Positions 44,255-55,223 of a stretch of 64,000 bases of DNA are shown piece after piece. Made by a program: the position numbers and the translations under genes. The stretch comes from Phyllosticta citribraziliensis. Its lineage: Eukaryota. How positions within the stretch are numbered: position 1 is the stretch's first letter; every line of letters begins with the position of its first letter. The stretch covers positions 868,001 through 932,000 of the forward strand of contig NW_027117343.1 in assembly GCF_038025025.1 (NCBI RefSeq), given 5' to 3'. The notes beneath the pieces were generated by a model, which was not told the DNA's origin, made no database searches, and saw only the letters and a program-made list of their open reading frames with translations.

Positions 44255-45064
44255 CTACCACACCACGCCCATGACCCCCCAAACCGCCTCATAAACGCCC
44301 TCCACATCCCGCAACGTCTCCCTCGCAACAAAAACACCATAAACATCCTCCGCCCTCTCCAACAACTCCACCCCCTTCACCGGCCGTCCTCCCCTGAGTC
44401 CAACCCACCGCCTCAGCGCCGCCACCGCATCCGCCATATCCCATGGTCGCTGCCCCAGCCAGCTCATCCGCGCCACAGCACTCGCGACGACGTACTCCCA
44501 CGGCGCGGCGAGCACGCGCAGCCGCCCGCTATGCGACACGTAGATGGTGTCGTTTTGGCGACACGCGGCGGCCGCGAGGTGCGATTGCAGCGGCAGCGGG
44601 AGCGAGAGGATGACGGCGTTGGTCAGCCAGTTGGGCTGCAGGCGGGGGACGTTGCGGGTGCGGCTTTTGCGGTCTTGCCCACCACTGGCTGGCATGGCGA
44701 ATGCGGCGGCGGCGGCGAGCGCGGCGTTCTGCGGCGACGCGGGATCTGGGTGGAAGAACTGCAGCGCGGATGTCGTGAGGCGGCTGCGCAGGTGCAGGAC
44801 GTGCAGGGCGCCGCCGAGCGCGATGATTGTGATGGGGGCTTCGTTGTGGTGGTCGAGGTGGAGGGAGGCGAGATCCAGGGCGTGTAGAAGGTCGGCTCGT
44901 GTGAGTTTGGGGTCGAGGGTTGGGTCGCTGGTGTTGTGCTCTGGTTGGGGCGATGGGACCATGATGGGACCGCCTATGGGAGGCGAGATGCAGCGGTTGG
45001 GTGGTGGCGCTCTTGGAGGAGTACGTTTGGATGGACATGAGGGACGGGAGGGGAGACAGCCCAT
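44255..45064 (-). CDS. Hypothetical protein with a fungal nucleotidyltransferase-like fold (AbiEii/DUF6036-like), degenerate active site and N-terminal MGC motif
   Basis: ATG at 45064 (MGCLPSRPSC), Pro-rich linker, then IIALGGAL..LHLRSRLTTSALQFF, NWLTNAV, LRVLAAPWEY, WDMADAV. Family recognised by pattern only. Confidence 0.62.
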   Translation of the reverse strand: MGCLPSRPSCPSKRTPPRAPPPNRCISPPIGGPIMVPSPQPEHNTSDPTLDPKLTRADLLHALDLASLHLDHHNEAPITIIALGGALHVLHLRSRLTTSALQFFHPDPASPQNAALAAAAAFAMPASGGQDRKSRTRNVPRLQPNWLTNAVILSLPLPLQSHLAAAACRQNDTIYVSHSGRLRVLAAPWEYVVASAVARMSWLGQRPWDMADAVAALRRWVGLRGGRPVKGVELLERAEDVYGVFVARETLRDVEGVYEAVWGVMGVVW

Positions 45065-45783
45065 GTTTTTGAGGCGCTGGTTCGATGGTCCCAAGTAATC
45101 GAGCTTTTGAATGCCCCGGGGTACGTGTCTGAAAGAAGACTGTCTGGCTATGAACAAATTCCCTTCATCCACATCAGTGTATCAAATGGCATATATACAT
45201 GCCCATTCATGGCTTCGTCGTCCTCTCCGCAATCGCTTTCTGCATACACACTTCGGCAAATGCACTCAATGAGGCGATGTTGGTTGAGCCGCACAGCGCT
45301 GCGATTGGCCACCGCGTGCTTACTTACATGAACAAGACAAGCGCGCGACAACTGCGCCTACCACATCTAAGGTTATAGTTAGCCTCGTTCCAATATGCAC
45401 AAAATGACCAAAACTGTCGATTTCCTGGAAGAGTGTCAAATATGTGTGGGTGAGCCCTGGTTCCAATACTGTGCTTATGCGGCGTTTTCATGTCGGGAAG
45501 AAGGAAATGGCAGCTGATGGTAGCGTGGCAAGCTCTTGTTCGTTGCGAATGTAGTCTTTGGAAGATGGAACATGAAGCGCAATTGGTGATACATTCTTAG
45601 AAGGGCTGTTGAGAGAATCATGAGAACGTCCATTGGGTCTGTGACTGAGAAAGGAGAGCAAATTGAGAAGTGCAATTGTGGCCGAGAAAGCCAGAGGCGT
45701 GAAAGGAGAAATCAGAAGCAATCCTCAAACTCCATGTCGAAATGAAAGAGTGAAAAGAGACAGAAACAAACTCAACCATGAAA

Positions 45784-48700
45784 TCAACGACGAGAGAACA
45801 GGGCCTTCCTTGGTGCCTTACCACCCGTGGCTTTCCTCGCGGGCGTGCCGAAGAGGCCACCCGTCGAACGCGTGAGAATGGATCCGCCAACATCTCCATC
45901 ACTATTGCCCTCCTCGCCATCCTTCTTCTTGTTCTCGAACCAGGTCTTCGCATAGCAAATCCAATTCTCAACCTCGTCGACGCCGTCATGAGAGCTGGTC
46001 CACGATCCATCCCTCTGCTTCTTCGCTAGGCGTCTGGCGACCTCGTTGGCTTCACTCAAAGAAACGAGCTTCCTCTTGGCTTGGCCTGTCTTCTCGTCCG
46101 AGCTCAAACGCTCTTTGACCATGTTCCACGTCTTCAAAACCAAGCTCGGTTCCTTCTTGTCGATGGACTTCTGCTCGCCAACGAACTTTTCGGGTCGACG
46201 CCTGACAATCGGATCACGTCCCACAGTCTGGCTGATTGATGTACCAAAGATGGAACCTGGGTCGCGGGGAAGCTGAGGAGGTTCCTTGAAGCATTCTCTC
46301 ATGCGTTCGTCCCATGCCATTTCCGCTGGGGTACGGCCAGTCGCATTTTCGCGATGCAACAGCTCTGGGCGGCGGTCCAGGATGATGTTGGCCAGGCGTA
46401 GGAATTTATTGCGGATGACGATGTGAAGGGGCGTGTCGCCTGCACCGTTAACCAATTCGAGCTCCTCGAGAGAGGAAGAAAAGTCCAGGATGACATTCAA
46501 GATCGCTGCATCCCGATCTGAATCACAGGCAAGGGTTTCGAGCCATTTGGAGAGCGGAGTGCTGCCTCCGAAGTCAGTGGCGCTGCGCTCGGTGAAGAGG
46601 CTGGGCAAGAGGCGGCGGTCAACTAGATCAAGCATCTTGGACAGTTGCTGAGGTCTGTAAACCTCATCTCCCGCTTGGTAAGGGATATTCTGCAAAAGCG
46701 TGTGGATCAGGTTGTTTCCGTCCTTGTCGCGAGTTGTTTGGTCGGCACCAGCGTCTATGAGGGCACGAGCGACAGCGTAGCGGCCAAGGCGGAAGGCGAG
46801 ATGGAGAGGGGTCAGACCAGAACTCGGTGACTTGGTTTTCAAAGACTTGGGAACCGCGTCGACAATGTAGTCGATCAGCTTGTTGCATTCCTGGATGGGG
46901 ATGTCCGAGATGATGATGCAGTGAAGAACGAGGTCGCGCCTTGTTCCCAACCAGCCCTTGATGCTCTTGTCCAATCCGCCTTGGGCCTGGGCAAGATACT
47001 GTAGACGCTTGTCTTCCTTGTGCGCCGCGGCGAATTCGTGATACCATCTCGTGGGGCTGTCGCTCAAGAACAACTCCAAAGAATCGACGTTTCCTGCCTT
47101 GGCCGCTTGAAGAAGAGGTGGGTGCAGAAACTGGACTACTGGCATGCTGACTTCCCGTCCAGCAGCCGCCCAGTCGGCACGCTTCGTGCCATGGACTGAC
47201 AGACCTTGGTAGAACTTGGGCTTCTCCGTGATTTTGACTCCACTGCTCTTGACAAGCTCTTCCAAGGGAATACCAGAGCCAGTCCTTTTGATTATCTCGG
47301 CAAGACAACGGGTTCTTCCATTCTTGATTGCAAAGGTCAGGTCGATCTCGTCGACCCTAAAGAATCGTTGCTCTCCGTCTTCGACCTTTTGGTACTGCTT
47401 GGCATACTCATCGCCCCACGTCAGCAGAGTCTTGAGCAAGTCCAGGTCGTCTTTGTAAATGGCGTATTGCAAAAGACCGATCATCTGAGCACGAGACCAC
47501 TCGCCAGATGTAGGATGCGAGGTCAATCCCAGCGACGAAGTGCCATCGTCACCCAGTTTGACCTCAGGGATAACGTAAGACCACTCGAAGAACTCGAGGG
47601 GAGTCGTATGGCTCCTGACTGCAGTCGCAACCTCACCGACGTTTTCGATGGTGAATTGGTCGTCGAGAATTTTGACGTCAAGCCTGATATTTCCACCATC
47701 GTCGTCATCAGTCTCGCTTGCCTGACTCGAGTCATCATCAGCCATATCGTAGCGTTGCTGAGCCTCCTCAGTCTTTGGCTTGTACTGGAGTTTTGCAATT
47801 TCGAGAATTCCTTTGGCGGTATCAAGGTGCCCCCGCAAAAGAGCAATGTGGAAAGGACTGGCTCCATTGGGGTCCTTGACAGCGATCTTGAGAGGGAACT
47901 GGTCGCCAGAATCACCCCAGAAGCTCAGAGTAAGCTTCTTGATCGTAGAAAAGTCACCGTTCCAAGCAGCCTCGTACCTGAAGACGCGTTAAATTAAATC
48001 ACAAAAAGACCTTGCCAATGCACTTACAGCTGAATGTACCCCTCCGTCATCTTTGGATTCAGATTCGGGACTTGAAATGAGAAGGTGACTTCGAAGGGCT
48101 TCTCCTTCGTGCTTTGTGGCGTTGCGTGGCGTCCAAAAGCACTTCGCTTTTCCCGAGTTGGCTGTTCGATTTCAGGGTGGAGTTCGTAGAAAGTTTTGGC
48201 ACCCTTTTCAACAAGAGCCTTTTCGACCTCTTCGAATTGCTCGATGAGACGGTTGATCGCTTGTTGCTTTTGTTCAAGGCCCTCTGGCTGTTGAGGCTCC
48301 GCCTTGTTCTGGTGGTCTAACTCGGCCTTGTAGCGGGCAATGGCCTGTTGAACCGTCATGACCGCCATCCACTGCTGATAACCGCCATCCTTGAAGGGTT
48401 TGATGAGATGCTGTCCGTCTCCTTCGAATGGAATCTTCGGTTCCTTCGGTTGGGCGGGGGTCTCCGGCTTGTACTTTCTCAATTCATTCAGCTTCTCGCG
48501 CACAACATCGATGAGCGCAAGACCGGAATCGCTCTTGCGTCTGTAGTCCCACTGAATGACTTGCCATCCCTTGTGAGCGATGGTGTTGGGATCAGCACCG
48601 TATTCGAGAAGCTTGAGCACGATATCCGGCATCTCCGCTTCGACGGCCATGACGATCGGCTGATGGACATGGTCGTAGAAGTTGCGCTTACTCTGTTCAG

Positions 48701-51361
48701 GAGTATTGTAGAAAAGATTTTTCTCAATGTCTTCAGAATGCAAGGCCAGGTAGGCATCCATGAACTTGGTGAAGTCGATTTCTGGCGAAGCACCAAGCTC
48801 GAGCAGGGTGATGACAGACGAGGGGATCTTGCCCTCGATGGCAGATAGAAGAGGAGTGAAGGGGTTCGGCCTCCAGCGGGTTTTTTCAATGGACAAGTGG
48901 TTGACGGCTCTTTGTGCGGCGGGTTTGTCGTGTTCAATAAACTTGTCCAAGAACCTCGGATCGACGGTAGCGTAACGGTGCAAGGCCGTAATGCCGTGCA
49001 AATCGGCTTGAGCTGGAGAGGCACCGAGTTCAAGCAGAAGTTGGGCCATTTCTTCAGCCTTGTCATACGGAAGACAGTGAGCGAGGACAAGAGTGAGGAT
49101 CGCGGATCCAGGGGTCTTGTCATAAGCCTGGAAGAGCTTGACAGGCAACAGGACGTCGGCGCCGAAAGTCTGAACGAGCTCTTTGACAACGTCGCAGTGG
49201 CCATTGACTATGGCAAGGTGCAACGCTGAGCATGGTGTGTCCCAGGCCAAGACATTTACGTCGAAAACGTCTGGCTCTTCCTCATCCTCCTCTTCTGGCA
49301 GGTTGTCGCCCTCGGTAGGTCCCTCGGTCTTCCTCAGCTTGACGTACGATCCCGTGGTTGCTGACTTCATTTCGACATCCTCATCCGAGTCTCCATCCTC
49401 AACGATGTCCATATCGTCGTCGGATTCTTCGTCTGCCTGAGCACCGCTGGCTTCCTTTTTGGCTGCAAGTCTTTCCTGCTTGCGGAGATCTTCCTTTTGG
49501 GCCTCCTCCTCTTCATTCTTCTCGCTTCTGGTCAGGAGAATCTTGACCATCTCGAGGTTGCCGCGAGCAGCTGCAATATGAAGGGCGGTTCGACCATCAG
49601 CGAAGCGAGCGACCATGCGGGCGCCAGCATCAACAAGGACCTGGACAATCTCAGGAGTGGACGAAGTGCAAGCCAGTTGCAGAGGAGTGCGACCAGTGTA
49701 ATCGCGGCAGTTCGGATCGGAGCCCTCCTGGGCAAGCCAGTCCTGTACGTGCTCGAGGTCCTTGTCGACGATTGCTTGGCAGAGGCGTGCCGTGTTGCCG
49801 ACGTAGGCCATCTCGGTCCAATCGTCGTCAGTGAGAGGGTTGAAGCTGCCAATCGTTTGTCGACCCGGGTCGTCTTTGATGAAGGAGATTTCGCCGGAAA
49901 TGTAGATTTTGCTTTCCTCTTCGGCTACCTCTTCTTCCTCGGGAGTCTGGGGTTTGGGGCAGTATCCGCAGCAGTCGTGGATGACATCGTCAACATCACC
50001 GAAAAAGGCGGGATGCCGATGGAGATGCACTTCACGGTCCTTGGGCTTATTCCACTCGGCGTTCATGAGCAAGTCTTTGGTGTAGAGCAGCTTCTCAATC
50101 TTGCGAGCATGAAACTTTTCGCCGTAGGGGATCGTAAAAGTGTGGTAGTTGGAAACATCTTCTTCGTCGACCCATTCCGCAACTTCGTCTTCATGGTCGT
50201 CTTTGATGTTGCCTGCGAGGGTTCGGGCGAAGCGGTTGTGGCGGTTGATCGGCGGTCGGCCCCGCTCTCGCCGTCTCTGGTCCATGTATGAGTCTCTGTC
50301 GGTTGACGTTGGCAGCTTCTCGAGCACCAGTAGCCTTGCGAGACCGAGAGTTCGTGCGAAGTTGCGCTCAAAGATGGTGGGGTCAATCCTGGCGCGGTCC
50401 ATTTGAGGCCAGTAGACCTCAAAGCCTCGGTGAGAGTACTTGGACAAGCGGTTTTCGTAGGATGGAGAGCGTCGACTCAGATCGATGGTGTTGACTTGGG
50501 TCATGTAAGCGGCCAATGCCCTGGGCGAGGCATAGACCTGCTTGCCATCGTAGGCGGCGCAGGAGCAGTCGACGTCGAAGCCAGTGAGAATTTCGGCGAC
50601 GGATTTGTAGATGCGGAGCACAATCTGTACATGGCGGGTGGGATATTGGCTGGCAATGGTAATGGCGTGCTTGGTCCTGATGGTTGTCGTCTCTTCCAAG
50701 ATGGCGTCTTTGACCTTTGCCTCAATTTGCCTAATCTTTTCGATTGCCTGCTCTTCGTCGAGGCCGTAGATGAAGAGGTCGACGTCTGAGGCCGGGGCAA
50801 TGACATCATGGTAGTATCGGCGAAGGGAGCGCTTCGATCCAGAATATTCCTCAGGGACGGGCAGAAGTGAGGTGACGACGGAGCTTCCGGCCTAGCACTT
50901 GGTCAGTATGAAGACAAGTCGAGGAGTGGAAATGCACGTACAGCAATAACGTTACTCCAGTCCATTTCAGACAAAGAAGACTCGGAGAAGAGATTGAAGT
51001 TTGTCTGGAAGTCTTGGAAGCTTTGCACAACACCAAGGGCGCCGTTTGGCTTCCGGTCTTTATCAGCAAGCGGCATCAAGTACTTGTCCGTCTCCTCGGC
51101 TGACTCTGCGGCAAGGTCGCGAGCCCGAATCTTGAGGTCTTTCTCATGGCCGGCAAAGATTGGAGTGATGTTCAGGTGGTTGTCGGCCAGCAGTGGGTTG
51201 GTTGGGTCCTGAGCAAAGACCTCTCTGAGTTTGGAGTCGTACTGCTGGTATGGCGCTAGGAGCTCGGGGATGGGGGTTTCTGGGTGAGCAGCCACATGCG
51301 AGATGAAGTCGGCATGCTTGACCGGCACGTCTGGAAGCACGGTGGTGGAGACTGCAGCCAT
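45784..51361 (-). CDS. Large (about 1800 aa) ankyrin-repeat protein with an N-terminal nucleotidyltransferase-like domain and a C-terminal histone H3-like motif
   Basis: Three ORF-track pieces join through 50-nt GT-AG introns 50941..50892 and 48027..47978. VIA|AGSSV, ASDVDLFIYG, GFDVD, ankyrin repeats (GRTPLQLA, GRTALHIAA, GLTPLHLA, GDTPLHIV), end ARKATGGKAPRKALFSRR. Confidence 0.9.
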
Positions 51362-52001
51362 TGCGAGAAGATGCAGCGAGGAATCGAGGGATTGCGAAAG
51401 TGAGGGTAGGTTTGGAAGTGAGTGGGTCGCAACGAGGTGTGGTTGAGAGGGAGGAGAAGGCGATGGAGACAGAAGAGAGCAAACAAAGAGGATTATATAG
51501 GAAGACGCGTTGATTGCGTCGCGCAAGTACGCGCATCACGTGTGGCCATTTGGGATGGAAGATTTAGGCGGCAAGACCCTGGTCTAACCCGTTTTGGGGG
51601 TCGTAGATCCACAACACCAGGCAACATGGCGCTATTGCCTGGACCACCTGCTCCAGACCTGACGGGAGCGGACGCGACTTACCGCTTACCGGCTCATCTT
51701 CGCCGCTTGCCGTCACCGCAGTTCCACTGCCGCTCGTGTCTCGGCCTGCATCCTGCCATTAGCTTTGCAACTTCACGGCAGACGGCATCAGAGCTCACCC
51801 TCATTGACGTCAGAATCTGGCAGCTGCCTCTAGGATTTTTCACCAATACGATTTCGTTGCCTCACAAGAAATCCGACTTGCGAGAATGAATTTCTTAGCT
51901 GCTTCGTGTCCGGGTATAGCCAGCCAGCACCATCCAATTGTTTTTTGTCCTGTTCCTTTCCCAGATCCGTTTCCCACTCTTAACCATCCCTTACGACAAA
52001 C

Positions 52002-53273
52002 CTATCGCTGCATCATCGCCAATCTAGCTGGATTGATACCTGCGAAATGGCTCTCTTCCGGTTGCGCCTCCTCGACCGGCCCATCGAATTGAGGAGCCTC
52101 ATTGCCACCGGCACCCTGCTTCCTATGCGCGCGCTTCTTCTCCTTCTCTTCTTGTTCGAATCGACGTTTGCGCTGCTCATTGAGCCTTTCGTTCTTGTGC
52201 TGGATGCGCTCCTTACGGGCTTCGGTATTTCCGCCGCCACCGGCACTAGAGGAAACCATGTCAGCGTCATTGTAGGTTTGATAACAAGCAAGACTACTCA
52301 CGTCAACTCGACGTTGATCTTTCTCGTCTTCCCCTTGCCAGCCTCAAACAGCGAATGGTGGTATAGCTTCAAGCAGCTCTTCATGTAGTCGTATCGGTCA
52401 AACTCGAGGAACGCAAAGCCCTTGGACTTCTTGTTGTCGTCCCGCATGGGCGCCCGGATCGAAATGGGATGGACCTTTTCAAAGTGCTTGGCCACCGATT
52501 CGGCATTGGCAGTGTATGGAAGGTTGCCTGCGAAGGATTCACGTTAGCCAGTTTCCGTATCCTTCATGATTTGACAGCATCATACCAATGAAGCAGATGA
52601 AGCGCGATTTGGGCTTTCCATCCTCGTCCACTTCTCCGTCCTGAGCGCCATTCTCGTCTTGCTGTTCTTGCGCAGGCTCCTCTTGCGCAGCACCCTGTGG
52701 TGCCGCGGGAGTCTCGGACTGAGCTGCTTCGCCATCGTTCTTCTTGCGCTTCTTCTTCTCCTTCTTCTCCCTCTTCTCGACCTTTTCTTCCTTGGTCTTG
52801 CTCGACTTGTCAGCGGGCGCAGATTCGTCGTCCGTCTCGTCGTGCTTTCTCTTCTTCGACTTCTTGGTCTTTTCAGACTTTTCAGACTTCTCAGACTTCT
52901 CCAACTTTTTGGACTTGCTAGGCGCCTCTTCTTGTGCGTCGGCCTCTGCCTCGTCGGTTTCCTTCTTGTCGGCCTTTTTCTTGTCCTTCTTATCCTTCTT
53001 CTCCTTCAACTCCGATTCTCGCCTCTCCTTCCGGCGCGCCTTTGAATTCTTGTGCTCAGAAGTCGCATCATCGGTGGCTTCGGTTGGGATGGCGACGAAG
53101 TCGGCGCCGGTGTCGAGAGGTGCGGAACTCGTTGCAGCAGTCTCGGCACTGGTGTCGACGGACTGGGCGGCAGCAGCCTCTGCCTCTTTACGTTTCGACT
53201 TCTTTTCTTTCTTCTCCTTCTTTTCGGAGCGCTCCTTCTTGCTCTTCTTCTCGGGCTTTTCGGATTTCGACAT
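52002..53273 (-). CDS. NOP6: Nucleolar RRM protein Nop6-like with a long K/E-rich N-terminus
   Basis: RFICFIG|NLPY (RNP2), KGFAFLEF (RNP1), RKINVELT|AGGGGN, C-terminal GINPARL. Introns 52585..52528 and 52301..52246. Confidence 0.85.
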
Positions 53274-53465
53274 TTTGGCGACGCGACGAAAAAAGGTGTG
53301 TTGGTGAAGGGAGCGCGTTGAGTGGTCGGGACGGGACCAAGGAAAGATTAATCGAGAAATTTTGCCGGCATTATTGTCACCGCCCTCACCCACACCCTCC
53401 AGCCAGAGCCGCCCACAGCGATCACCGTCTCCGCATAGCACTGCGCGCCACGACACCTGCCCGCC

Positions 53466-55223
53466 ATGCAGGCCGTACGGTTCTCAGCGCGACAATTGCA
53501 TCCTCTCCGGAGACCATTGCTGTCACCTAGCGCCCTCCTTCAGCCTCCAAAACCGCGCCCGTTCACCCACAACTCGCAGCTCCTATTGGTCGTGTCTCCA
53601 GCCAATCCACGACCGCAGCTGCCCTTCCTCCACCCCGCCGCAACCGAATTTCGATATCGACAGAATGGTGGTCAATGGCAACTATCCCGCTATCTTACGA
53701 CTGAGAGAAAGGCCAAATGGAAATACAATGCCTGGATAACGACCAGAACACTCGTCATCTGCGTCGTTGCTACTGCCTTCTTCGGCGTCGCACAATACGG
53801 CATTTTCCAGGAAAGGCTTGAGCGAGATCGACCAACTCCGCGTGAGTGGTCCTCGCTGACCCGTTGGATATACCGGGATGCCCGCGGTGTAGATGATCCG
53901 GCATGGTCGGTACTGGCCATGGGCGATCCTGTCGTTGCTGGACGGCGGTACAAGGACTGTGTCCGGCGATTGGAAGACCCAGAGATTGACGGCCAAGGCG
54001 TCAAGGAACAAGACGACATTCCCGTCAAACTGCTCGGCATGGGTAAAATGGGCTTGGATATCGAAGCGAAGAGCGAGCCCTGGCGACGCGGATACCACGA
54101 GGTGCTGATGAGTCTTGGACGTTGCGCCGAAGCGCTTGATACTTGGGTCACAGACAAAAAGCGGTTGATTGTTTTCCCTCCTGCAATGGTCATAGGGCCA
54201 AACAACCCCAATCCCCTGCCTGTGCCGCCTGGATCCCCCGAAGCGCCGCGAGAGGAGGACTGCAGGCCAGCTTTTGCACCACCGGAAGACTTTTATATCA
54301 AGATACTCACCACGAAGGGTTTCAACGCTCGTCAACGCATCGAAGCAGCAAACAGAATGGCAGACTTCCTCGTCAAAAAGGGGCGTACGCAGGAAGCTGA
54401 CACCATGTATCAATGGGCGCTCGACACTGCAAAAACCGCTGTCCCTGAGGGCGACAGCATCATCGACAAGAGCGGCGTCATCCAAGAAAAGGCCCAATAC
54501 GTAACAACCAACATCCTCTCCACCGCCAAAGAATTCGCTGCACACAAGGCACGAAGCGGCGACGTCGACCGCGCCCTCCCCATCCTCCTCTCCATCCTGC
54601 GCGCTCGCCGCCAAGCGCCCCAAGGCCCTGAGCCGGACCTAAACGCCGCCAAAGACGACGGCGACTTCATCACCACGTTCCTCTGGTTCATCCGCGAGAA
54701 GCCATACCCGGCGCCGCCGCCGACGGGCGACGAGCCGCTGCAGCGCACGTCGGCCAGTCTGTGCGACGACGCCGAAGTCATGACGCTGATTGGCGAAATC
54801 CTGTACGCGACGTCGGCGCCGTCGCGCGAAAAGGGGCTCAAGTGGACGCGCCAGGCCATCGCCGACGCCGAGCTCGCCCTCAACATCGGCAACCTCGACG
54901 ACGACCAGCGCGTCAAGTGCCGCAACTGCATGCTCGCCGGCCGCCACAACCTCGAGAAGATGGTGCAGCAGCTGGTCCGGATCGAGGAGGAGAGGAGGGC
55001 GAAGCACGGCGGCAGCGCGGCTGCTGCTGGCCAGAGTAGCTGGTGGCGCCCTTGGAGCAGCGGCAACGGCAAGAGCAGCGATCAAGCCCTGGCCGAACTG
55101 AACCAGGAGCTGCTCGATAATCGGCATTGGATGGTGCGCGGGGAGAGAGACGCTGCCGCAGAGGAGTACAAGATGATGCGGTCGAAGAATCCGCTCTCTG
55201 GTACGCTGCTCTTCAACACCTAG
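53466..55223 (+). CDS. Hypothetical protein, probably mitochondrial membrane (presequence, one TM segment, helical TPR-like region)
   Basis: 585-aa intronless ORF. Arg/Pro/Leu-rich N-terminus without acidic residues, TM LVICVVATAFFGVAQYGIF, helical repeats (A..MYQWAL, ALPILLSILRAR, LIGEILYA). Confidence 0.8.
   Translation: MQAVRFSARQLHPLRRPLLSPSALLQPPKPRPFTHNSQLLLVVSPANPRPQLPFLHPAATEFRYRQNGGQWQLSRYLTTERKAKWKYNAWITTRTLVICVVATAFFGVAQYGIFQERLERDRPTPREWSSLTRWIYRDARGVDDPAWSVLAMGDPVVAGRRYKDCVRRLEDPEIDGQGVKEQDDIPVKLLGMGKMGLDIEAKSEPWRRGYHEVLMSLGRCAEALDTWVTDKKRLIVFPPAMVIGPNNPNPLPVPPGSPEAPREEDCRPAFAPPEDFYIKILTTKGFNARQRIEAANRMADFLVKKGRTQEADTMYQWALDTAKTAVPEGDSIIDKSGVIQEKAQYVTTNILSTAKEFAAHKARSGDVDRALPILLSILRARRQAPQGPEPDLNAAKDDGDFITTFLWFIREKPYPAPPPTGDEPLQRTSASLCDDAEVMTLIGEILYATSAPSREKGLKWTRQAIADAELALNIGNLDDDQRVKCRNCMLAGRHNLEKMVQQLVRIEEERRAKHGGSAAAAGQSSWWRPWSSGNGKSSDQALAELNQELLDNRHWMVRGERDAAAEEYKMMRSKNPLSGTLLFNT

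Follow-up and report, generated by a model that had tools for sequence, protein, structure and literature searches.

Why should a large ankyrin-repeat protein of a citrus-associated fungus end in what looks like a piece of a histone tail? The question is raised by a minus-strand gene of Phyllosticta citribraziliensis, which lies within a 64,000-nucleotide (nt) stretch of contig NW_027117343.1 (NCBI RefSeq assembly GCF_038025025.1, positions 868,001 to 932,000 of the forward strand); here, we will call this whole stretch the window, and all positions are counted from its first letter. A first-pass annotation, made from the letters alone, had pointed out that the reading frame closes with a look-alike of histone H3 residues 7-20 (12 of 14 residues) at 45840..45799 and that a partial second copy, TRSTGG, sits just upstream at 45873..45856. 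Count and coordinates were reproduced, the likeness to H3 7-20 is confirmed to be real and beyond chance, the tail that carries it is expressed, and a motif of the same kind recurs in an internal loop in other fungal orders. What the motif does is a harder question; we tentatively take it for a histone-type import or docking signal, which we hold as the leading possibility rather than as the expected outcome.

The following parts of the tail should be kept in mind:

45787..45930, minus strand: disordered, lineage-restricted C-terminal extension, residues 1778-1825 (absent in P. capitalensis; predicted local distance difference test, pLDDT, below 50)
45799..45840, minus strand: motif ARKATGGKAPRKAL, 12/14 identical to H3 residues 7-20 (frame reading, PDB search, identity count)
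45799..45825, minus strand: invariant core GGKAPRKAL, the equivalent of H3 12-20 (9/9 between two Phyllosticta groups)
45847..45858, minus strand: GLFG, kept in all five tail-bearing species (tail alignment)
45856..45873, minus strand: TRSTGG, a partial second copy of the STGG element (TSSTGG in P. citrichinensis and RTTPSG in the P. citricarpa group, hence not conserved)

How good is the match? The minus-strand protein ends GLFGTPARKATGGKAPRKALFSRR, its reading frame passing through the tail (ILTRSTGGLFGTPARKATGGKAPRKALFSRR) to a TGA stop at 45786..45784, and the identity with H3 6-23 is 13/18. When the last 30 residues were compared with PDB chains using phmmer, 131 distinct sequences were matched at E<=10 (best E 0.0028), and among the 60 of these matches listed, all were H3 tails or H3-family chains, one of them named Cse4; the best alignment sets 'parkatggkaprkalfsr' against 'TARKSTGGKAPRKQLASK'. 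The probability of at least 12/14 identities at one position is 3.4e-13 if the composition of the whole protein is assumed and 8.5e-11 for its last 30 residues, and 20000 shuffles of these residues reached a top score of 9/14, three times. A search with the tail only, among proteins of 1003-3194 amino acids (aa), gave 44 candidates, one of which, from P. citrichinensis, had E<=10.

The gene and its introns are as follows:

51361..45784, minus strand: ankyrin/Gad2-like gene, 1825 aa; exons 51361..50942, 50891..48028 and 47977..45784, the last including the stop
50892..50941, minus strand: intron 1, 50 nt, GTACGT...TAG (read splice sites; joint 50890/50941, cut +1, in the X1 and X2 contigs)
47978..48027, minus strand: intron 2, 50 nt, GTAAGT...CAG (read splice sites; joint 47974/48025, cut +3, in the X1 and X3 contigs)

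Both introns have canonical ends, and the spliced three-exon translation equals the annotated P. citribraziliensis 'ankyrin repeat protein' (P0079) in every letter, which confirms that a large ankyrin protein carries the motif at its C-terminal end, as had been claimed. The open frame of the last exon (47988..45784, minus strand) has the C-terminus GDVGGSILTRSTGGLFGTPARKATGGKAPRKALFSRR directly before the TGA. Logan contigs were compared over window positions 45000..51700: in run X1, a contig of 5567 letters leaves out precisely the two introns, an X2 contig skips intron 1 and an X3 contig skips intron 2, so that spliced copies of the gene are present in these runs. None of the three runs carries an RNA record, complementary DNA being indicated by the intron-skipping joints, and the contigs are silent on level, strand, and ends. 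The tail region is spanned without a joint and with 0 differences by an X1 contig (45000..46256) and an X2 contig (45426..46880); the motif is therefore not spliced away, the last exon continues through to 45784, a check that the first-pass annotation had proposed, and the H3-like tail is expressed. A 2473-letter X1 contig runs from the last exon through the 3' region and past 45000 towards a minus-strand open reading frame (ORF) at 44255..45181, in which no Pfam family was matched, and the X2 contig ends at 45426 beside adapter letters.

Is the tail a fixed part of this protein family? Among 122 family rows that retain the C-terminal ANE[VI]..R helix, the ..KAPR.. tail was found in 11 and the other 111 are without it. 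The 11 comprise the two window rows, two P. citrichinensis models, six rows of P. citricarpa, P. paracitricarpa, and P. citriasiana (the P. citricarpa group), and one protein, P0013, filed under Quercus suber; the tail is thus present in five citrus-associated Phyllosticta species. P. capitalensis, which is sister to four tail-bearing rows with a support of 96 (FastTree, 94 rows), ends WVENRD in all seven rows that reach the C-terminus (five annotated, two Logan), and the remaining Botryosphaeriales have other C-terminal endings. Aspergillus rows carry an unrelated basic cluster, RRYRRRRY, in the same C-terminal disordered region.

Within the tail-bearing species, the extension evolves quickly. 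The window protein and P. citricarpa P0081 are 83% identical overall, compared with 28/58 columns in the extension, and the identities there cluster in KKKDGEE, GLFG, GGKAPRKAL (9/9), and S-R..R. In P. citricarpa, P. paracitricarpa, and P. citriasiana, ARKAT has become TRRVM or TRRFM, that is, K9 is replaced by R, S10 by V or F, and T11 by M. Aligning the orthologue C-termini, as had been suggested in the first-pass annotation, therefore gives a divided answer: the core is kept 9/9 across five species and the motif is found in 19 loop rows (see below), whereas the K9-T11 part is lost in three species and the tail is absent in P. capitalensis. Since the tail is restricted to one lineage and diverges outside the core, we read it from the alignments as an apparently young, fast-evolving extension with a single invariant core, H3 12-20, and one should remember that conservation within Phyllosticta rests on one contrast, between two groups.

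Three observations on other tail-like sequences are worth recording here. The two P. citrichinensis models, P0080 and P0002, differ in that one continues for 62 residues after the motif (KALSSQAHLSRACL) where its counterpart stops with KALSSQVRSSRR, which reflects a difference between the strains or between the annotated 3' ends. A diverged contig of run X6 (depth 134) aligns at 45803..45855 only, between joints 45549>45803 and 45855>45925, its flanks (window 45549..45925) giving no alignment at >=85% likeness, which is consistent with a relative in which the core alone is conserved in DNA. P0013, an 'ankyrin repeat domain-containing protein 54' of 1379 aa, is closest to fungal orthologues of the Mycosphaerellales type (48-53% identity) and, judged by this similarity, is probably fungal DNA within a plant assembly; it carries FFGPRNAYTLAGKRSNTG, a diverged form of the loop motif, as well as ..VFGSARGMKAPRT at its C-terminus.

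The loop motif just mentioned is a second H3-like site, non-homologous to the tail, and lies where 'W.CP' and 'NLFQ.AI' flank an expanded loop. The loop is short (45 aa) and free of the motif in Botryosphaeriales, the window protein among them, and it is motif-bearing in Pleosporales and Elasticomyces. Its position in the window is:

47458..47592, minus strand: short 45-aa loop, residues 1224-1268, H3-like motif absent (loop table, 178 family segments)

Matches of at least 8/14 to H3 7-20 were found in 29 of the 274 proteins compared, after a further search around the loop of one protein, P0100, had given 42 hits; 10 of the 29 are from Phyllosticta (C-terminus) and 19 are loop matches. Macroventuria and Elasticomyces are among the carriers, and Ascochyta and Stagonosporopsis rows, at 7/14, fall just below the cut. 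The loop motif lies ~550 residues before the C-terminus (184-191 in the truncated models P0240-P0242). Four loop rows reach 12/14, three representatives reading RRKSTGGKAPRK[IV]L and one GRKSTGGKAPRKIL, with RRKSTGGKAPRKIL among the 12/14 forms, and RSKSTGGKAPRKIL and RRKSTGGRAPRKRL reach 11/14.

The expected number of matches of at least 11/14 is ~5e-6 in 298,616 residues, and when the loops were shuffled on themselves for 300 rounds, 0.003 loops per round reached at least 8/14, compared with 4/178 observed. The 40-aa loop of P0100 matched 129 PDB sequences at E<=10 (best E 0.01), and among the 60 matches listed, all were H3. In a search of 193 further family proteins, with 292,525 residues in all, a profile built from 23 loop motifs, with no Phyllosticta sequence in it, ranked the Phyllosticta tails first (13.3-14.7 bits; independent E-value, i-E, 2e-4 to 6e-4) and placed true but degenerate loops behind them; an earlier profile of 19 motifs had placed them just behind two true Pleosporales loops, at 4.1 bits and i-E 0.3. 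A structured segment conserved family-wide, EIIKRTGAGIPLD.L (residues ~1322-1336), matches the H3 tail at 6-7/14 or 6-7/18; its likeness is regarded as a coincidence and gauges the background of matches in this family.

The part of the loop that is kept is not centred on K9. Across 56 distinct long loops, ..GG[RK].PRK[IV]LKDAANGRTY forms a conserved island, and several loops have an aromatic-Gly element (GLFG, GIFG, RFG) upstream, as does the tail. In 23 loops, which were picked for their H3-likeness, identity to H3 is high at G12 (23), R17 (23), G13 (22), S10 (21), P16 (21), K18 (20), A15 (19), and L20 (17) and lower at K9 (14), T11 (14), R8 (12), and A7 (0); at position 14, 16 loops have R and six have K, and downstream the loops continue as RKIL[KR]D. 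In P0094, P0245, and other Pleosporales loops, the second half, ..[AH][PH]RKIL[KR]D..G, resembles H4 residues 17-24, so that these loops look like a hybrid of the H3 and H4 tails. The P0094 loop matched 50 PDB sequences at E<=10, 49 of them H4 (13-30) and one an H3 chimera, all weakly (best E 0.44).

Because the same motif appears at an internal loop in other orders, it should be treated as a motif of the family and not as a one-off curiosity of Phyllosticta. Judged by these comparisons, the H3-like sequence appears to be a recurrent short linear motif of a Gad2-like nucleotidyltransferase/ankyrin family, a motif of which no description was found in the limited literature searched. The internal loop, the N-terminal Gad2-like domain, and the absence of the tail from the closest outgroup and most orthologues are all points beyond the first-pass annotation. 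The domains of the window protein are:

49872..50891, minus strand: Gad2-like (PF26128) domain, approximate core, residues ~141-480 (homologue annotation, Atlas, invariant columns)
49518..49784, minus strand: ankyrin repeats of the middle block, residues 510-598, the best Pfam stretch there (Ank_2, E 1e-41)
46726..46941, minus strand: ankyrin repeats of the C-terminal half, residues 1441-1512 (Ank_2, E 2.4e-15)

A further Pfam ankyrin stretch lies in the C-terminal half at residues 1605-1649, and the protein belongs to the ankyrin class by an Ank_2 score of 141.8 bits (cut-off 27.3) and four more Ank families in Pfam. PF26128 is precomputed for most full-length, ~1800-aa Pezizomycotina homologues in our table, and the nearest Atlas clusters (score 0.90-0.91) carry 'PF26128 Gad2' in 85-96% of their members; the Pfam scan of the window protein itself gave no PF26128 match, the model apparently being absent from the copy used, and the assignment is made via homologues. 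A catalytic pattern of the Pol-beta type is G-[GS] ... D-x-D ... D. An alignment of 80 family members shows no variation at G142, D246, and D248 and has S143, D176, and D178 in >=90% of the sequences; the N-terminal domain (residues 1-480, 49872..51361, minus strand) also has an invariant C447-C448-x2-C451. The columns G-S, D-x-D, and D follow the Pol-beta pattern and fit a predicted active site of this type. We know of no fungal Gad2-like enzyme fused to ankyrin repeats that has been characterised so far. Phage Gad2, an anti-Gabija protein, is described in the excerpted text of bioRxiv 10.1101/2023.05.01.538930 as a predicted nucleotidyltransferase whose homologues occur almost always in phages or prophages. 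The fungal N-terminal domain resembles it in its PF26128 assignment and in keeping the G-S, D-x-D, and D columns; unlike phage Gad2, the fungal proteins have ~1800 aa, two ankyrin blocks, and histone-like motifs.

A look-up in the Atlas gave no structure for this protein; structure models place the motif outside the folded parts. AlphaFold2, run on the C-terminal half (730 aa) with an alignment of 94 rows, gave a model of mean pLDDT 81 and predicted template-modelling score 0.79 in which the tail, model residues 686-730, has pLDDT <50 and no secondary structure, and in the P0100 model (1176 aa, mean pLDDT 79.8) the loop motif at 638-651 falls mostly within segments of pLDDT <50. Both copies are thus predicted to behave as exposed linear motifs, docking in cis being predicted for neither by models that are blind to modified lysines. 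A complex prediction of the ankyrin block (500-1095) with the tail (1776-1825) gave no answer (score 0.00, without controls) and bears neither way.

What, then, might recognise such a motif? The sequence, expression, disorder, distribution, local conservation, and two-site recurrence of the motif are observed, and from these we infer a binding partner and an effect on localisation. The motif, which copies H3 ~8-20 at the C-terminus in citrus Phyllosticta and in a disordered loop in Pleosporales and Elasticomyces, would offer a docking site to a factor whose usual target is this part of H3, with an importin of the Kap123/Importin-4/Kap-beta2 type as the foremost candidate; the motif would then be a histone-type nuclear localisation signal. 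Constraint falls on S10-L20 in the loops and on G12-L20 in Phyllosticta, position 14 being K or R. In the excerpted text of PMC7752055, H3 11-27 is bound by Imp-beta, Kap-beta2, and Imp4, with Imp4 and Kap123 taking up 12-GGKA-15 in the same pocket. The excerpts of PMC5677370 state that Kap123 orders H3 12-17 and 21-26, accepts H4 13-20 as a further ligand, and prefers small residues (Gly/Ala) around K14, and, citing Blackwell 2007, that a charge-preserving substitution of K14 has a minor effect on nuclear localisation. We rank the import or docking reading first since importins hold H3 by this conserved stretch, G12-L20 with a basic residue at 14. The small-K-small pattern of the first Kap123 site is found as G-K-A in all five Phyllosticta species and as G-[KR]-A in the loops; the exchange of K and R at 14 fits charge-based importin binding and rules out K14 acetylation as a conserved feature. 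The weak H4 match of the P0094 loop falls on the other histone signal bound by Kap123 and is counted for this reading. As in the H3 import signal, GGKAPRKAL equals H3 12-20 except for Q19A, G-K-A fits the first pocket, the motif is disordered and basic, and K or R is tolerated at 14 family-wide; the differences are that it sits in a non-histone enzyme, at a C-terminus or in a loop, that the lysine of the K23 pocket is replaced by arginines in the window tail, and that the binding is putative.

Several points weigh against an import or docking signal and should not be passed over. Kap123 has a second-lysine consensus, at least seven residues after K14, from which the window tail departs: beyond the K14 equivalent and its A, it reads P R K A L F S R R, with arginines at +9/+10 and no lysine past +4. 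The reading also presupposes that the protein is nuclear. Importin binding leaves the conservation of S10 (21/23 loops) and T11 (14/23) unexplained, for which an adjacent regulatory phosphosite may be the reason, and the per-position counts come from the same 23 loops selected for H3-likeness. Most orthologues are without the motif (111/122 by the tail, and all short-loop lineages), so that it is not essential to the family. Finally, 12/14 identity to H3 exceeds what a generic import signal needs, and the motif may have originated by copying of H3 coding DNA, relocation of the loop motif and convergence being the other candidate origins. Judged by eye, other signals were set aside: a peroxisomal PTS1 signal is ill-suited to the endings -SRR/-VRR, and PP1 docking motifs (RVxF/SILK), a classical mono- or bipartite nuclear localisation signal, tankyrase RxxxxG, and a PY-NLS were dropped.

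The first-pass annotation had centred on K9, with the tail as a DIM-5 substrate or an HP1 ligand. In a wider form, the motif would be a substrate of, or decoy for, the writers, erasers, and readers of H3 (DIM-5/Clr4, Gcn5/SAGA, HP1, 14-3-3, and an S10 kinase), either coupling the enzyme to chromatin signalling or titrating such factors. We consider this unlikely, though it has real points in its favour: the 12/14 identity is more than a basic import signal requires, R8-K9-S10-T11-G12 is intact together with K14 in four loop representatives (a fifth, P0100, keeps R8-G12 with R at 14), and S10 in 21/23 loops with R at -3 in 11/23 resembles a kinase site. Precedents exist in G9a and SETDB1, which reportedly carry ARK(S/T) automethylation motifs that mimic histones and are read by HP1-type chromodomains. 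The fungal case is similar in having an H3K9-like motif in a non-histone protein, in G9a one that has ankyrin repeats too; it differs in that theirs span ~4-6 residues around K9 compared with 12-14 here, the K9 part is the least conserved in the fungi, and a SET domain is lacking. A G9a-type methyl switch is A-R-K-(S/T) with a phosphorylatable +1 residue, and the ARKS reader motif includes A7; the window tail reads A-R-K-A and the citricarpa group T-R-R-V/F (with R, V/F, and M at 9-11), and in the loops A7 is kept in 0/23, R8 in 12/23, and K9 in 14/23. The so-called H3TMs (e.g. VRK1; PAF15) are likewise said to be non-histone proteins that copy a segment of the H3 tail, its N-terminus, with A-R-T-K read by PHD fingers; theirs is a free N-terminal A-R-T-K exposed after removal of Met, whereas the fungal motif corresponds to H3 7-23, is C-terminal or internal, and is missing residues 1-6. 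With R at 14 in 16/23 loops, acetylation of K14 is not a conserved feature either. In vitro, according to the excerpted text of PMC3248561, Neurospora DIM-5 requires H3 R8-G12, and S10A leaves it with 'greatly reduced' activity. The A at S10 in the window tail would therefore cost more than the phospho-switch whose removal had been noted, and the K9-centred reading is weakened by this loss of DIM-5 activity and by TRRVM/TRRFM; a histone-code role stays alive mainly for loops with R8-G12 intact and is weak for the window tail.

The motif may also be doing nothing. An H3 coding fragment, or a motif of the loop type, could have been copied to the 3' end of the gene in the ancestor of the citrus Phyllosticta and be decaying neutrally, the 9-residue core merely not yet having been hit; the faster evolution of the extension (28/58 compared with 83%), its absence from P. 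capitalensis and from 111/122 family rows, and the single independent contrast between two Phyllosticta groups are all as one would expect. Such a relic is nevertheless improbable, as flanks that are ~39% identical give nine straight identities at a pre-specified core a probability of ~2e-4, the motif is a conserved island in the 56 loops of the Pleosporales type, and the loop-derived profile puts the tails first. We find it quite improbable that the motif is a generic basic patch with which the nucleotidyltransferase grips a nucleic-acid substrate or an acidic partner, the H3 likeness coming from composition and ancestry. The Gad2-like N-terminal domain (Gad2 being a predicted nucleotidyltransferase), the basic and disordered nature of the motif, and unrelated basic clusters at the same region in other orthologues, such as RRYRRRRY in the Aspergillus rows, would suit a basic patch; composition does not explain the order of the residues, shuffles of the tail reaching 9/14 at most, and conservation at G12, G13, P16, and L20 is no weaker than at the basic residues. 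In a Pfam search at E<=10 with the 58-aa tail and four loop-bearing orthologues, only ankyrin families were matched, and histone, AT-hook, and other nucleic-acid-binding families were not found. The first-pass annotation had also suggested that the tail is a ligand of the protein's own ankyrin repeats, and one might picture the tail or loop motif folding onto the ankyrin groove as an autoinhibitory pseudo-ligand: motif and repeats share one polypeptide, and the ankyrin repeats of G9a and GLP reportedly read H3K9me, binding H3K9me1/2. This suggestion gained nothing from the AlphaFold2 models, in which, with deep alignments, neither the tail nor the P0100 loop motif acquires the confidence or structure that a docked peptide is expected to show, and we regard it as very improbable.

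If the motif is functional, whichever partner it has, what would follow? Histone mimicry is known mostly as 4-6-residue motifs of the ARKS type in animal chromatin enzymes, and in viral proteins. Here, the copy is 12-14 residues long and corresponds to the middle of the H3 tail, with a conserved core that matches the part of H3 bound by importins; the fungal enzymes that carry it look like housekeeping proteins, and different orders have it at two disordered positions that are not homologous. Compared with known mimics, it is longer than ARK(S/T), takes another part of the tail than the H3TMs, and occurs in a different protein family and at two positions. A bolder proposition, which we think doubtful, is that a fungal nucleotidyltransferase-ankyrin enzyme is wired to the histone-tail machinery through its own 12-13-residue look-alike of H3 (partly H4), that the same kinases, writers, readers, or importins would act on it as on H3 S10-K18, and that citrus Phyllosticta, in which the loop copy is absent, kept the link by re-creating the motif at the C-terminus. 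If true, this would be unusually long, recurrent, and relocatable histone mimicry inside a cell's own proteome. A functional motif would provide a handle on a Gad2-like nucleotidyltransferase/ankyrin family conserved across Pezizomycotina, and the natural experiment of loop, tail, or neither could reveal what recognises H3 12-20 outside chromatin; the motif also illustrates the turnover of short linear motifs between sites within one protein.

The surroundings of the gene can be described briefly. Neither of the two neighbours beyond its 5' end is a histone or an obvious chromatin gene: at 53439..55223 (plus strand) lies a 594-aa ORF whose tetratricopeptide-repeat matches are weak and below the cut-off, and 52298..53483 (minus strand) encodes a lysine/glutamate-rich protein with an RNA recognition motif (PF00076, E 2e-11).

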